From a virus: 46,657 nt of DNA. Positions within the stretch are counted from its first letter, which is position 1; the number at the start of each line of letters is the position of its first letter. Where the stretch lies: UHGV virus genome UHGV-0180138; one strand, written 5' to 3'. The notes under the pieces were generated by a model that was given only the letters and a program-made list of their open reading frames with translations, was not told the origin of the DNA and ran no database searches. Shown here piece after piece: positions 40,274 to 44,809 of the stretch. Both the position numbers and the translations under genes were made by a program.

Positions 40274-43200
40274 ATGAGTAGCGGCGGCGGCAAAGCCAAA
40301 ACACCAACATTATTGAACGATAACCTGTATCATAAACAGTTTTATCGTGTTTTAGATATTCTCAGCGAAGGGCCGATATACGGTCCGGTAAACCAGAAAG
40401 CGCCACTGAATGACGTGATGCTTAATGACACGCCTGTTACTGACGCAAACGGGAATACATCAATCCCGGGGATTAGTATAGCCTGGCGCAACGGCACGGC
40501 TGATCAATCTCCGATTAATGGTTTTAATGCCATCGAGTCAACCGTTATTGTCAACGCAAAGGTAACTCACGACACGCCAATAATCAGGACTGTTTCAGAT
40601 CCAAACGTTACCCGCGTCAGGTTGAATCTTGGTGTTGATGCTCTCGTTCAATCAGATAATAAGGGCAACCAATATAATACATCTGTCATGTTGATGGTGG
40701 ATGTTAAACCGTCATCATCTTCTACGTGGTCGCTGGTTAAAGATATACACATTGGTCCTGGTAAACAAAGCGGTGAATATCTGGAAGCTCACATCATTAA
40801 AGCGCCGGATGAAAAACCGTTTGATATTCGCGTTCGTCGCGTAACACCAGACAGCAACAGTGATCTATTGCAGAATGATACGCGGTGGAGTAGCTACAGC
40901 GAAATCATAGACGATAATCTGTCTTATCCTCATACCGCTGTAGCTGGCGCCGTAATTGACCATGATCAGTATACTGATACGCCTACCCGCACCTATCACC
41001 TTCGTGGCCTGATTGTTGATGTGCCTGACAACTACAACCCTGAAACGCGCACATATTCAGGTTTATGGCTTGGTGGATTTAAAAAGGCGTATACCAATAA
41101 CCCTGCATGGCTTTTCCGGTATCTGGTTAAAAACGAGCGCTTTGGGCTTGCTCGACATGCTGGTTACATTGATGTTGATGATGGCGCTTTGTACGTGCTT
41201 TCTCAATACTGCGATCAGTTGGTTGATGATGGCTATGGTGGCCTTGAACCTCGCATGACGCTTAACGCTTACATTACAGAGCAAATGAGCGCCCGCGATT
41301 TACTGGACAATATCGCCGGGATGTTCCGAGGCATCGCGTTATGGGACGGACAACGCCTTACCGTGATGATTGATGCGCCACAAGACCCGATCGCCACCAT
41401 CACAAACGCAAACGTCGTTGATGGTGCGTTCACTCGTTCAAGTATCGCCCGAGCAGAATGCTACAACGCCGTGATTGTATCATGGACTGACCCGGAAAAC
41501 GGCTGGGAGCAATCAAAAGAGTATGTGGCAGATGATGAGCTAATCGCCCGTGATGGTTATAACGAAACCACGTTGGAGGCGTTCGGGTGCACTTCACGCG
41601 GGCAAGCGCACCGCGCTGGTAAATGGCTGATAGAAACAGCAAAACGCGAGCCGTCAAAATTCACGTTTAAAATGGCCCGTGATGCGATTCACTTTACGCC
41701 AGGGGATATAATCGAGATCCTCGACAATAACCGCGCAGGCGCGCGTTTAGGCGGTCGTATCGTGGCGAACAATGGGAAAGTGATAACGGTCGATAAAGTC
41801 GATTCAGAATACATTGCAGCAGGCGACACCATCAGTTTACTTGATGGCGATGGCAAATTTAAAAAACATCAGATCACTGGTGTTAACGGGAACAAAATCA
41901 CACTGGCAGCAGCCCCGGCATGGATTCGGAACGGTACTGTTTTTGCTGTATCAACCGAATCTGCAAAACCCGTTTTATGTCGAATCATCAGCGTAGCAGA
42001 AACTGAAAACAACAGCGTGTACACCATCGAAGCAGCGCAACATGACCCGAAAAAACAAGCAGTAGTCGATGAAGGCGCTATATTTGAAATCAACAACGAC
42101 ACGCTTAATCACTTCCGCGTGCCGAGCATTGAAAATCTGAAGGTGGTAAACATTGGATCTGAAACGGTTCAATGCCGCGCAACATGGGAGACACAGACAA
42201 CAACACATCGCATGACCTTTGAGATCCGCATATATAACACAGATGGTGCGGTTGTTAAAAGCTACGAAACAACGAAATACAGTTATGATTTTTATGGCAT
42301 CGACGCTGGCGCGTATTCGTTAGGCGTTCGCGGAAGAAATGATACTGGCATGAAGGGCGCTGAAAGTATTGTTGATCTTGTTATTGGTGCGCCAGCCTCG
42401 CCAATAGGCGTTAACTGGGTTCCAGGTGTATTTCAGGCTACAGTGTACCCGATAAGCAAAACAACGCTAACAACTGATACAGCGTATGAGTTCTACTATG
42501 CAGGGAAAAACCAGATTACAGATCCTGCAAAAATAACCACGTCTGCGCAGTTTACCGGGCGCGGGTATCAGTGGACGTTCGGTGGAATGAACACGGGCCA
42601 TACTTATTACGTTTATGTGCGCACGCGCAATGCCTTTGGCGTGTCAGACTTCGTTGAGGCGTCAGGTAAGCCAACTGAAAACTTCGATGAAATCAGCGAC
42701 TATGTCACCAAAGACGTGATGAACTCAGAGCAATTTAAGGAATTGGTAAGTGATATTAAGGATCTTGGTGATCGCACTGATATTATAGAAAGCGCAACCG
42801 CCGACCTTAAAACAGCAACCGCCGACCTTAAAACAGCTACAGATGGCCTTAAAACTGATACAGATACACTTAAAAAAGACACCGAAGACCTTTATAAAAA
42901 AGTCGAAGAAAACGCCGATGGAATAGGCAAACATGAGGTAAGAATAGACTCATTAGAGGTATCAAACGAAAACGTTAATAACGAACTGGCACAGACAAAA
43001 GCAAGTTTACAAAACGCTTCGCTTGCTCTGATCAACAACTCGCTTGCTCAAACTAACACGCGGGTTACTCTTACCGCTCAATATAAGAAAGGTCGCAACG
43101 AAACAAAGGCACAGATTGACCGTATCGACAACGTTATCGCAGATGAGAAAAAATCGACAGCGGAATCACTGGAAACCATCACAGCAGAAATAAGCGCGAT

Positions 43201-44809
43201 TGACTCAAACACCAAAGGTGAAATAGCCCGCGTAGACAAAGCGATAGCAACAGAAACACAGGCGAGAACAGAGGCTATAAACAACGTTAACGCCAGTGTC
43301 AGCAGACTGGAAAGCAAAACTGATGCGAGCGTTTCTCGTCTTGATAAAGCAATATCAGATGAAACACAGGCAAGAAGCGATGCAATAACAGAGGTTAAAG
43401 CTGATTTAACAACGCTTGAAAATAACACAAATGCCAATGTTAGCCGCCTTGATCAAGCTATCGCTGACGAATCAAGTGCGCGCGCTCAGGCAATATCAGG
43501 TATCAGTGCGGAGCTTGGTCTTGTTGAAAATGAGGTTGATAAAAACAGCGACGAAATAGATCAGGCGAAAGCAAGTCTGCAAAACGCCTCGATTGCACTT
43601 ATCAACAACTCAATAGCGCAAAGCAAGATGAGCACTGTTATTGAGGCGAAATACAGGAAAGGCCAGACAAAAACAAAAGCGGAAATAGCAAGGATCGACA
43701 CAGCAATAGCAGACGAAACACATGCCCGCGCGGAGGCTATAGCATCACTTGAAGCCAATATTAATGAAAATATTTCAGCAAAAATAACAGATATATCAAC
43801 GGCGCTCGCAACTCACGAGGCATCAAGTGCTGAAAAATTTGTTCAAATATCGGCATCTTTCGACGATGTAAACTCAAGCATCACAGAATGGTCGCAGGCC
43901 ATGACAACGGCTGACGAGGCATTATCAACCAAAATTGATCAGTTAACAGTGACCGTTAACGGGAACAAGACGGCAATAGAGACGACATCGAAAGCGTTAA
44001 CCGACTTCAAGGGTAATGTCGATGCGTCGTATTCAATCAAGCTGGCAACAGATAACAACGGCATGAAGTACGCTACAGGTATGTCGCTTGGCCTTACTGG
44101 TGACGGCACAAACTTTCAATCGCAGTGTATTTTCCTTGTTGACCGCTTCGTGCTAATGACTGACGCAAACGGCACATATACAACGCCTTTCTATGTCACC
44201 AATGGTGCAATGTATGTACGGGAAGCTTTTATTAAAGACGGTTCAATCGACAATGCAAAAATAGGCAATGTCATAACGTCCTACAACTGGAACGGCAACG
44301 ATCAAGGGTGGGCGATAGTTAAAGATGGATGGGCCACATTTAACAACGTTACAGTTCGAGGCACGGTATACGCCACTAACGGCGAGTTTTCAGGGGCCGT
44401 TAGAGCCAAATCATTTGAGGGTGGCATTAGTTCAGGTACGCAGGGAACAAGGCAATCCAGCGGGACGATCACAATTAACGTAACACCTAATACACCTAAT
44501 AGTATGCTATTGCTTTTCGTTTCTGTGTACACGGCTGGTGTGCGCACAGCAAGCGGCGAACATACAGTAACACTACATGCTGGTGGTCGTAGTTTTAACG
44601 TTCCTCCGTCTTATGTTGCAAGTGGTGGCGTAGCGTCAACTTACAGATTTGATTCAACCATAATCATCCCTGTGATCGGGACCAATAAGAGGGCTGTTTC
44701 GTTATACTTGAGCCATGTTGGGCATGTTAGCCTAATTAATACAGACATCAGGGTTCTTGGCGCAGTATTACTAAACTCTTCATTTTTAACAGGTACTTTT
44801 GATTTTTAA
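40274..44809 (+). CDS. tail tip / host-specificity protein J (lambda gpJ-like) with central coiled-coil repeat region
   Basis: 1511 aa; N-terminal 900 aa parallel lambda J (LRGLIVDVPDNYNPETRTYSGLW, CTSRGQAHRAGKWLI, HFTPGDIIEI); 42700-43900 encodes repetitive coiled-coil segment; divergent C-terminus. Confidence 0.9.
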   Translation: MSSGGGKAKTPTLLNDNLYHKQFYRVLDILSEGPIYGPVNQKAPLNDVMLNDTPVTDANGNTSIPGISIAWRNGTADQSPINGFNAIESTVIVNAKVTHDTPIIRTVSDPNVTRVRLNLGVDALVQSDNKGNQYNTSVMLMVDVKPSSSSTWSLVKDIHIGPGKQSGEYLEAHIIKAPDEKPFDIRVRRVTPDSNSDLLQNDTRWSSYSEIIDDNLSYPHTAVAGAVIDHDQYTDTPTRTYHLRGLIVDVPDNYNPETRTYSGLWLGGFKKAYTNNPAWLFRYLVKNERFGLARHAGYIDVDDGALYVLSQYCDQLVDDGYGGLEPRMTLNAYITEQMSARDLLDNIAGMFRGIALWDGQRLTVMIDAPQDPIATITNANVVDGAFTRSSIARAECYNAVIVSWTDPENGWEQSKEYVADDELIARDGYNETTLEAFGCTSRGQAHRAGKWLIETAKREPSKFTFKMARDAIHFTPGDIIEILDNNRAGARLGGRIVANNGKVITVDKVDSEYIAAGDTISLLDGDGKFKKHQITGVNGNKITLAAAPAWIRNGTVFAVSTESAKPVLCRIISVAETENNSVYTIEAAQHDPKKQAVVDEGAIFEINNDTLNHFRVPSIENLKVVNIGSETVQCRATWETQTTTHRMTFEIRIYNTDGAVVKSYETTKYSYDFYGIDAGAYSLGVRGRNDTGMKGAESIVDLVIGAPASPIGVNWVPGVFQATVYPISKTTLTTDTAYEFYYAGKNQITDPAKITTSAQFTGRGYQWTFGGMNTGHTYYVYVRTRNAFGVSDFVEASGKPTENFDEISDYVTKDVMNSEQFKELVSDIKDLGDRTDIIESATADLKTATADLKTATDGLKTDTDTLKKDTEDLYKKVEENADGIGKHEVRIDSLEVSNENVNNELAQTKASLQNASLALINNSLAQTNTRVTLTAQYKKGRNETKAQIDRIDNVIADEKKSTAESLETITAEISAIDSNTKGEIARVDKAIATETQARTEAINNVNASVSRLESKTDASVSRLDKAISDETQARSDAITEVKADLTTLENNTNANVSRLDQAIADESSARAQAISGISAELGLVENEVDKNSDEIDQAKASLQNASIALINNSIAQSKMSTVIEAKYRKGQTKTKAEIARIDTAIADETHARAEAIASLEANINENISAKITDISTALATHEASSAEKFVQISASFDDVNSSITEWSQAMTTADEALSTKIDQLTVTVNGNKTAIETTSKALTDFKGNVDASYSIKLATDNNGMKYATGMSLGLTGDGTNFQSQCIFLVDRFVLMTDANGTYTTPFYVTNGAMYVREAFIKDGSIDNAKIGNVITSYNWNGNDQGWAIVKDGWATFNNVTVRGTVYATNGEFSGAVRAKSFEGGISSGTQGTRQSSGTITINVTPNTPNSMLLLFVSVYTAGVRTASGEHTVTLHAGGRSFNVPPSYVASGGVASTYRFDSTIIIPVIGTNKRAVSLYLSHVGHVSLINTDIRVLGAVLLNSSFLTGTFDF
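42793..42897 (+). repeat. tandem 21-bp (heptad-coding) repeats inside J
   Basis: GCAACCGCCGACCTTAAAACA repeated twice exactly then degenerate copies; encodes TADLKTA heptads. Confidence 0.7.

Follow-up and report, generated by a model that had tools for sequence, protein, structure and literature searches.

A predicted, repeat-built helical shaft of variable unit number in the J central tail fibre of a mEpimmI-like coliphage

Introduction

The virus genome UHGV-0180138, a stretch of 46,657 nucleotides (nt) referred to here as the window, carries at positions 40274-44809 of the forward strand a single open reading frame (ORF) of 1,511 amino acids (aa) for a J protein, the central tail fibre of siphophages related to lambda. 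The whole of a conspicuous repeat region lies inside this ORF, and a reading made from the sequence alone (the sequence-only reading) had taken it for a coiled coil whose expansion could change fibre length and host range. Which part of the fibre do the repeats build, how does their number vary among relatives, and does that number bear on the receptor? The explanation that fits best as a whole, and that we hold to be reasonably probable, is that they form an expanded shaft of the trimeric J fibre which varies in copy number and may act as a metastable spring.

Results and discussion

J follows the lambda layout with a long insertion in the shaft

That the protein is a J, as the sequence-only reading had proposed, is borne out by its Pfam domains (FNIII-A_GpJ at aa 88-214, Phage-tail_3 at 335-492, Ig_J at 609-707 and Ig_J_second at 709-811, all above cut-offs, and Phage_Tail_Tip, PF09327, at 1234-1371 with E = 2.4e-39), by its PHROGs label (PHROG 31, 'central tail fiber J') and by a phmmer alignment of aa 1-846 with lambda gpJ (8iyk; E = 2.9e-188). 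The Pfam scan of J gave no domain at aa 812-1233 and none beyond aa 1371. With a score of 732.6 the protein missed the whole-protein cut-off of 1950 for NCBIfam NF049904 lambda_TipJ, which covers close relatives of lambda J. Judged by these matches, it is a member of the J family but stands outside lambda J in the narrow sense.

Two blocks align with lambda gpJ, namely lambda 1-853 with J 1-846 and lambda 840-980 with J 1230-1379. In lambda, the alpha-helical shaft comprises residues 809-861 (53 aa) and is a three-helix bundle that has the FNIII domains on its upper side and the beta-prism and receptor-binding domain underneath (PMC11101478). Since the lambda flanks align on both sides, J has the lambda architecture with about 385 residues inserted within the shaft. 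Its position, its predicted helicity and a partial homology to a pyocin shaft (see below) all point to aa ~801-1250 (nt 42674-44023) being the greatly expanded alpha-helical shaft of a trimeric J central tail fibre, which connects the FNIII domains closing the tail tip with the beta-prism and the receptor-binding domain. By alignment, the neck helix at aa 801-840 is the counterpart of the upper helix of the lambda shaft. The lambda-like N-terminal part, put at 900 aa in the sequence-only reading, is therefore shorter (aa 1-846) and is joined by a second lambda-like block at aa 1230-1379. Likewise, the C terminus described there as divergent is so only in its last ~130-140 aa, the Phage_Tail_Tip or beta-prism domain at aa 1234-1371 being conserved and lambda-like.

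A structure model of the stalk, made with AlphaFold2 (AF2) as a monomer from a shallow alignment of 45 sequences, has one unbroken helix at aa 980-1217, with a predicted local distance difference test score (pLDDT) of 90-97 over aa 979-1110, where the canonical repeat units lie. Three long strands follow the helix (aa 1249-1259, 1265-1276 and 1285-1295). Fourier analysis gave a hydrophobic period of 3.59-3.60 over aa 907-1168 as against 3.48-3.52 in aa 801-906 and 1169-1250, and we infer for the unit array a core of 10 positions in every 36 residues, with an 11-7-7-11 pattern. In addition, J 1132-1356, that is the last ~120 aa of the stalk together with the prism domain, aligns with residues 966-1188 of the F2-pyocin protein PA0641 (E = 8.6e-33), whose residues 907-1084 were found by cryo-EM to form a trimeric coiled-coil shaft that also carries side fibres (bioRxiv 10.64898/2026.02.24.707460; PMC13455828). 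The modelled helix, the compatible period and the ~120 aa homologous to the PA0641 shaft would fit a trimeric coiled coil between FNIII-2 and the beta-prism, in line with the coiled-coil region first proposed. When the C-terminal part (aa 1230-1511) was modelled, as the sequence-only reading had suggested, the result (pLDDT 66) had the central fibres of lambda and A8 gpJ as its top Foldseek matches (probability 1.0, low TM-score). The mostly helical model retrieved zero Foldseek matches at E <= 0.001, and the stalk alone gave only generic, sub-threshold coiled-coil matches (SMC, Rad50) in Pfam and NCBIfam.

The stalk is built from heptads and 36-aa units

Internal repetition was scored by an ungapped BLOSUM62 diagonal scan of J, with 100 composition-preserving shuffles of the region as the null; the best diagonals of the shuffles scored 47 on average and 75 at most. 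Strong self-similarity is confined to aa 838-1229. The top offset is 36 aa, with a score of 306 over aa 907-1161 and harmonics at 72 aa (186) and 108 aa (126), while the offsets of 190 and 7 aa score 189 and 134. Repetition thus extends well beyond the 21-bp units, and the units written as ETQAR..AI...VSRLD in the sequence-only reading give, through their 36-aa period, the strongest signal. The 21-bp repeats, which had been placed at 42793-42897, were recovered by Tandem Repeats Finder (TRF) at 42794-42879 (period 21, 3.0-3.6 copies), the in-frame array being shifted by one base; it reads ATADLKT ATADLKT ATDGLKT DTDTLKK DTEDLYK at aa 841-875, the first two copies being identical in DNA. The duplicated ASLQNAS[LI]ALINNS[LI]AQ segments, expected at about 42990 and 43565, begin at aa 910 (nt 43001) and aa 1100 (nt 43571), within a 94-aa duplication (aa 881-974 versus 1071-1164) that accounts for the 190-aa offset. 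All of the repeats that had been named were thus real, but the dominant 36-aa unit, to which most of the variation in length is due, had been overlooked. In fact, the heptads, the ASLQNAS duplication and the ETQAR/VSRLD units are facets of this 36-aa (108-bp) unit.

There are five canonical units, which start at aa 943, 979, 1015, 1051 and 1133, and two variant units, A1 at aa 907 and A2 at aa 1097, which are 58% identical to each other in aa and 68% in nt. The offset is 190 aa because of a 10-aa linker at aa 1087-1096 (190 = 5 x 36 + 10). Canonical units share 22-53% identity in protein and 49-59% in DNA, where random in-frame 108-mers from J share 26 +/- 4% (maximum 42%), and their third codon positions are near saturation. 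On these sequence distances the units are old, and the divergence at third codon positions excludes a duplication by assembly. A promoter and terminator scan of 42600-45100 gave nothing beyond the shuffle expectation, so that the repeats are not regulatory DNA.

It is very improbable, and by now largely refuted, that the repeats are an artefact of composition or assembly, or that the region is beta-structured in the virion from the outset. Such readings could appeal to the Ala/Ser/Thr-rich composition and to the generic character of the Pfam and NCBIfam matches. They have against them, however, a self-similarity far beyond that of the shuffles, the diverged third codon positions, and the homologous pyocin segment, which is a coiled coil before ejection. 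Moreover, the same protein (100% identity) is encoded by three independent metagenome contigs, such as scaffold_148 of ENA ERZ28621425 (54.5 kb), and a protein database search found copies 94-100% identical in other assemblies.

Stalk length changes in whole units among relatives

By sequence, the window belongs to the mEpimmI group of temperate coliphages (PMC11893012). The 25 kb at 15000-39999 match mEp010, mEp013, mEp021, mEp044, mEp515, mEp554 and MagusPhagus with 85-88% identity over 66-85% coverage, the J gene itself is 85-88% identical in nt to those of mEpimmI phages, and mEp013 J shares 88% of aa with the J of the window over aa 3-1404. We compared repeat numbers, another follow-up that the sequence-only reading had named, in two sets of relatives. 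The first consisted of 17 annotated J genes (seven phages, nine Escherichia coli prophages and the window), and the second of 137 J proteins from a database search, with 136 parsed stalks.

The end of the FNIII domains is constant at ~aa 800 in all 17 genes of the first set, while stalk length ranges from 368 to 859 aa across the 137 proteins of the second. For 135 of the 136 parsed stalks, this length equals (3+7h) + 36u plus a constant of 232 or 186, with h = 4-14 heptads and u = 4-15 units; nine stalks without the 46-aa block of linker and A2 have the constant 186, and the others 232. Differences among relatives are therefore exact multiples of 7 and of 36 aa, and the proposal that repeat number alters fibre length holds for the stalk. 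The clearest case is found in three E. coli prophages, 2017C-4173W12, GN04592 and LP-26-E1-261, whose J proteins differ by one substitution and by the presence of one, two or three perfect copies of AIADEASARAEAISNVNASVSSLESKTDASVSRLDK; in LP-26-E1-261, the 108-bp repeat is present in 3.4 copies with 100% identity. These three genes form a natural isogenic copy-number series. In P0013 (97.4% identical) and P0016, the nearest shorter relatives of the J of the window, exactly one ATADLKT and a single 36-aa unit (aa 994-1029) are missing. Copy number thus changes in whole units, via slippage or unequal recombination on the 21/42-bp and 108-bp repeats, and the occurrence of such changes among close relatives means that fibre length is quantised and fast-evolving.

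Heptad and unit numbers rise together at about 1:1 (Spearman 0.82 across 22 distinct architectures), and they do so within three receptor-binding classes as well. An obligatory scaling of units with heptads was considered and rejected on account of three outliers, the viable phage mEp515 (10 heptads, 5 units), P0033 (8 and 13) and P0084 (14 and 12). Possible causes of the joint rise are selection on total length, inheritance as a block with swapping of terminal domains, and a spine that has to match the prism. Separately, several of the longer relatives (P0003-P0005, P0022, P0027, P0031 and others) carry precomputed matches to PF28217.1 and PF27241.1, which are not assigned to the J of the window (P0006).

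Receptor class is independent of stalk length

The tail beyond the start of the prism falls into ~7 classes of length and sequence, each of which occurs with many stalk lengths. Among the characterised phages, the LamB users have stalks of 450 (mEp013), 651 (mEp010) and 773 aa (mEp044 and mEp554), and the OmpA users of 439 (mEp515) and 773 aa (mEp021). Receptor class is thus independent of stalk length, and the terminal domain varies on its own. The notion that repeat number tracks the receptor was rejected since both LamB and OmpA users have short as well as long stalks, and with it falls the part of the sequence-only reading that tied repeat expansion to host range.

The receptor-binding class of the window, with a 261-aa tail, is shared by 33 of the 137 relatives, whose stalks measure 407-579 aa, and is absent from all six characterised mEpimmI phages. 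When the last 156 aa were run exhaustively with HMMER against 1.84 billion representatives, only weak partial matches came back, so the domain is unassignable to a known receptor class. Megablast of the last ~600 nt of J against complete E. coli genomes gave no match.

A candidate fold switch in the shaft

Two known systems suggest what such a shaft might do. He et al. report that 163 residues of the F7-pyocin shaft switch from coil to beta-prism upon cell contact; this opens the tip, the tape measure protein is ejected, and the same is predicted for 21 of 24 siphophage central fibres (bioRxiv 10.64898/2026.01.28.702463). The same source defines a motif, SxSxxMxxLxS, whose direction alternates from strand to strand. 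In lambda, the prism-proximal helix 841-861 becomes beta-sheet on LamB binding, which frees the FNIII plug (PMC11101478).

We therefore counted the motif in J. It occurs 19 times in aa 907-1250 and is absent from aa 801-906, with 5.1 +/- 2.3 occurrences in shuffles; shuffles that keep core and non-core positions gave 3.5 +/- 1.8 as against 16 observed. Its density is 5.5 per 100 aa in the array and 0.5 in the tape measure protein of the same phage, a difference of ~10-fold. Each unit has a reverse motif at position 4 and a forward motif at position 19, except that the reverse copy of the aa 979 unit fails on a Gly. Over 249 distinct units, R8 (100%), D10 (99%), E16 (100%), A19 (97%) and A29 (99%) are nearly invariant, and conservation is 97-100% at the motif positions 4 and 19 as well as at R8, D10 and E16. 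All five near-invariant residues appear to sit at positions assigned as non-core, where a plain coiled coil would not obviously need them. Fold-switching fibres of the F7 type have a non-switching N-terminal 'spine' and about three seed strands of the prism where the C-terminal region starts. The lack of motifs in aa 801-906 and the three long strands which the AF2 model places at aa 1249-1295, right behind the helix, would fit these two features, but neither is specific.

These observations suggest that the shaft is a metastable spring and not just a spacer. For the whole 36-aa array we rate this as slightly short of an even call, and higher for the prism-proximal part. The shaft would turn from a coiled coil into a beta-prism upon contact with the receptor or cell, and the conversion would shorten the fibre, free the FNIII plug and open the tip. 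Each 36-aa unit would contribute one beta-hairpin, and the heptad neck would serve as a non-switching 'spine'. In its strongest form, in which the entire array, beyond the prism-proximal ~100 aa, is a modular alpha-to-beta spring and each 108-bp unit encodes one beta-hairpin as well as ~10 helical turns, so that units could come and go with neither fold disturbed, the proposal is doubtful.

Several points weigh against the spring. The motif is degenerate, and the residue sets used to find it are our own reading of He et al.; its copies descend from one ancestral unit and are non-independent, so the shuffle statistics overstate the significance. For J and its group both fold states are predictions, and AF2, run on a monomer with a shallow alignment, gave the helical state only and no beta alternative. 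A fully extended shaft would measure ~60 nm in this phage and as much as ~120 nm in relatives and would be hard to overlook, and the mEpimmI paper, in the text available, gives tails of ~130 nm with no remark on a long tip fibre (PMC11893012). Lambda and T5 lack an extensive switch according to He et al. (bioRxiv 10.64898/2026.01.28.702463). Finally, mEp515 is viable with 10 heptads and 5 units, so that a strict scaling of neck and body is not required.

The main competitor is a static spacer. On this account, which we think rather less probable than not, a trimeric coiled coil sets the distance of the receptor-binding domain from the tail tip, and the conformation of the body is fixed apart from a small, lambda-like change near the prism. 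Units would be gained and lost through selection or drift acting on reach, such as reach across O-antigen or capsule, a proposal to which we give the same limited credence. The continuous and confident AF2 helix, the change of length in quanta while the receptor-binding domain stays unchanged, and the absence of an extensive switch in lambda noted above are all as expected of a spacer, as is the joint rise of heptads and units if total length is selected. A spacer does not, however, account for the ~10-fold enrichment and strict alternation of the motif or for the near-invariant residues at positions assigned as non-core. The homologous segment of the F-type pyocins is the very one that switches, and the 3.6 period, if read as two stutters per unit, would resemble the 'weak point' of the F2 shaft.

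A further function, compatible with either a spring or a spacer, would be the docking of side fibres: the shaft, and especially the variant ASLQNAS...YKKG blocks with their Gly-containing ends, would bind a downstream fibre product. The F-type pyocin shaft binds three side-fibre trimers at a Gly-induced kink (PMC13455828), a 584-aa gene that relatives annotate as tail fibre or 'head spike fiber domain' protein lies directly downstream of J, and the variant blocks are unlike the canonical units and yet alike between copies (58% of aa). Against docking, AF2 shows neither a break nor a kink in A2, and the second block is missing from the nine relatives with the constant of 186. We regard docking as unlikely.

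Should the spring prove right for the whole array, J of the mEpimmI group would be by far the largest such switch known, with 340-750 switching residues compared with 163 in the F7 pyocin. The prophages with one, two and three units would then be a ready test series for stored energy, contraction distance and infectivity as a function of unit number, and the ~1:1 rise of heptads and units might reflect the need for the spine to span the prism.

Features and neighbouring genes

Table 1. Parts of the J gene in the window and the prophage copy-number series (the last three rows give positions in the prophages' own records).
Feature	Position	Strand	Evidence
J / central tail fibre gene	40274..44809	+	ORF; Pfam J domains; PHROG 31; mEp013 J match; three metagenome contigs
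Hub and FNIII/Ig domains, aa 1-800, lambda-J-like	40274..42673	+	Aligns with lambda gpJ 1-807; Pfam
Neck helix, aa 801-840	42674..42793	+	aa 801-846 align with lambda 808-853; period 3.48 over aa 801-906; fold-switch motif absent
Heptad array, 5 x 7 aa, 21-bp tandem repeat	42794..42898	+	TRF; 4-14 heptads in relatives
Linker coil, aa 876-906	42899..42991	+	Within the 190-offset duplication (from aa 881); outside the AF2 model; Pfam-negative
Variant unit A1 (QTKASLQNASLALINNSLAQTNTRVTLTAQYKKGRN), aa 907-942	42992..43099	+	36-aa register; motif pair at aa 915 (reverse) and 925 (forward)
Four canonical units, aa 943-1086	43100..43531	+	Matches of a unit hidden Markov model (HMM) at aa 944, 980, 1016, 1052; period 3.6; AF2 helix from aa 979
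Phase-shifting linker EVDKNSDEID, 10 aa, aa 1087-1096	43532..43561	+	Gained or lost with A2 as one 46-aa block
Variant unit A2, aa 1097-1132	43562..43669	+	Duplicate of A1; AF2 helix runs through
Canonical unit 5, aa 1133-1168	43670..43777	+	Unit-HMM match at aa 1134; PA0641 alignment (966 onward) begins here
Prism-proximal coil, aa 1169-1250, period ~3.5	43778..44023	+	Aligns with PA0641 ~1003-1084 and lambda 840-861; AF2 helix to aa 1217, then low confidence
Phage_Tail_Tip, central straight fibre / beta-prism, aa 1234-1371	43973..44386	+	PF09327; AF2 strands; Foldseek
Predicted C-terminal receptor-binding domain, aa 1372-1511, all-beta, variable class 'F261'	44387..44806	+	AF2 beta-rich model, pLDDT ~60-75
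J gene of prophage 2017C-4173W12 (L012)	1363-6333		
J gene of prophage GN04592 (L014)	1363-6441		
J gene of prophage LP-26-E1-261 (L013)	1363-6549		

In the window, J is preceded by ORFs at 38349-39053, 38981-39787 and 39730-40260, which match the tail genes L, K (NlpC/P60) and I. On scaffold_148 the order is Phage_tail_L, an NlpC/P60 protein, a tail assembly protein and then J. In mEp021 (L002, 2437-3003) and mEp515 (L007, 1937-2503), a gene of 188 aa lies between the tail assembly gene I and J and overlaps the start of J by 8 bases. The mEp021 copy carries the annotation putative HNH endonuclease, the mEp515 copy that of a hypothetical protein. The I/J junction of the window (40260-40274) has only a 13-base gap instead. 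Directly after J, the genomes of mEp013, mEp010, mEp044, mEp554 and MagusPhagus carry a small reverse-strand gene, annotated as a lipoprotein in MagusPhagus, which is absent from the window (44810-46657); this is the position where the mEpimmI paper puts superinfection-exclusion lipoproteins (PMC11893012). The 584-aa forward gene considered above for docking starts ~108 nt past J, at ~44918, and extends beyond the end of the window.

A TTG-start ORF of 119 aa at 43078-43437 on the reverse strand runs antisense to the repeat array and is probably a by-product of the codon composition of the repeat. The records of some relatives contain predicted reverse-strand terminators inside J.

Implications and comparison with known systems

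The length of the central fibre in this common group of coliphages from the gut and in E. coli prophages is thus quantised, quickly evolving and decoupled from receptor specificity, and predictions of host range from sequence should rely on the terminal domain rather than on the repeat count. If the fold switch is true, these fibres would in addition provide a natural dosage series for studying an ATP-independent way of penetrating the envelope that was discovered recently, and would serve as a template from which to engineer the fibre length of phages and tailocins.

Part of this picture was already known. The mEpimmI paper of 2025 describes J proteins in which 'repeats of different length' precede a conserved stretch and a terminus that varies (PMC11893012), and for the shaft, its coiled coil and the fold switch, lambda and the F-type pyocins are the known precedents. 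New here are the quantisation in 7 and 36 aa, the copy-number variants seen directly, the finding that stalk length and receptor are decoupled, and the motif evidence that ties the units to the fold-switch family. Since J repeats have been in print since 2025, the novelty is modest; our finding extends published work and overturns none of it.

Within the mEpimmI group, the J of the window shares the heptad array, the 36-aa units and the conserved tail-tip domain with mEp013, mEp010, mEp021, mEp044, mEp515 and mEp554. It has 5 heptads and 5+2 units where the group has 4-14 and 4-15, and its receptor-binding class with the 261-aa tail does not occur in these six characterised phages. The mEpimmI paper neither resolves the 7- and 36-aa quantisation nor separates stalk length from the receptor (PMC11893012).

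Outside the group, a tblastn search with aa 979-1250 matched J or central-fibre genes in 90 phage records, among them siphophages of Klebsiella, Enterobacter and Escherichia (HK542, HK140, HK544), with lower identity (27-38%) and shorter coverage than within it. In several of these records more than one match per gene indicates internal repeats. The J genes of the Klebsiella phages OY757064.1, ON045001.1 and OY757094.1 were each matched by the unit array in nine separate places, so that multi-copy shaft repeats probably exist outside the mEpimmI group too.

The central fibres of the F-type pyocins (F2 PA0641, PDB 25vf; F7 CFP) share with the J of the window the aligned shaft and prism and the alternating SxSxxMxxLxS motif. 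Their shaft, however, measures ~165-180 aa and is not described as tandem units, whereas the body of J is 2-5 times longer, modular and variable in copy number. The pyocin fibre is without a receptor-binding domain of its own (PMC13455828) and J has one; the switch in J is a prediction. Lambda gpJ (8iyk, 8xcj, 8xck; PMC11101478) has the same order of hub, FNIII-1/2, shaft, beta-prism and receptor-binding domain, but its shaft of 53 aa contains neither a heptad array nor 36-aa units, whereas that of the window is ~450 aa long and built from repeats.

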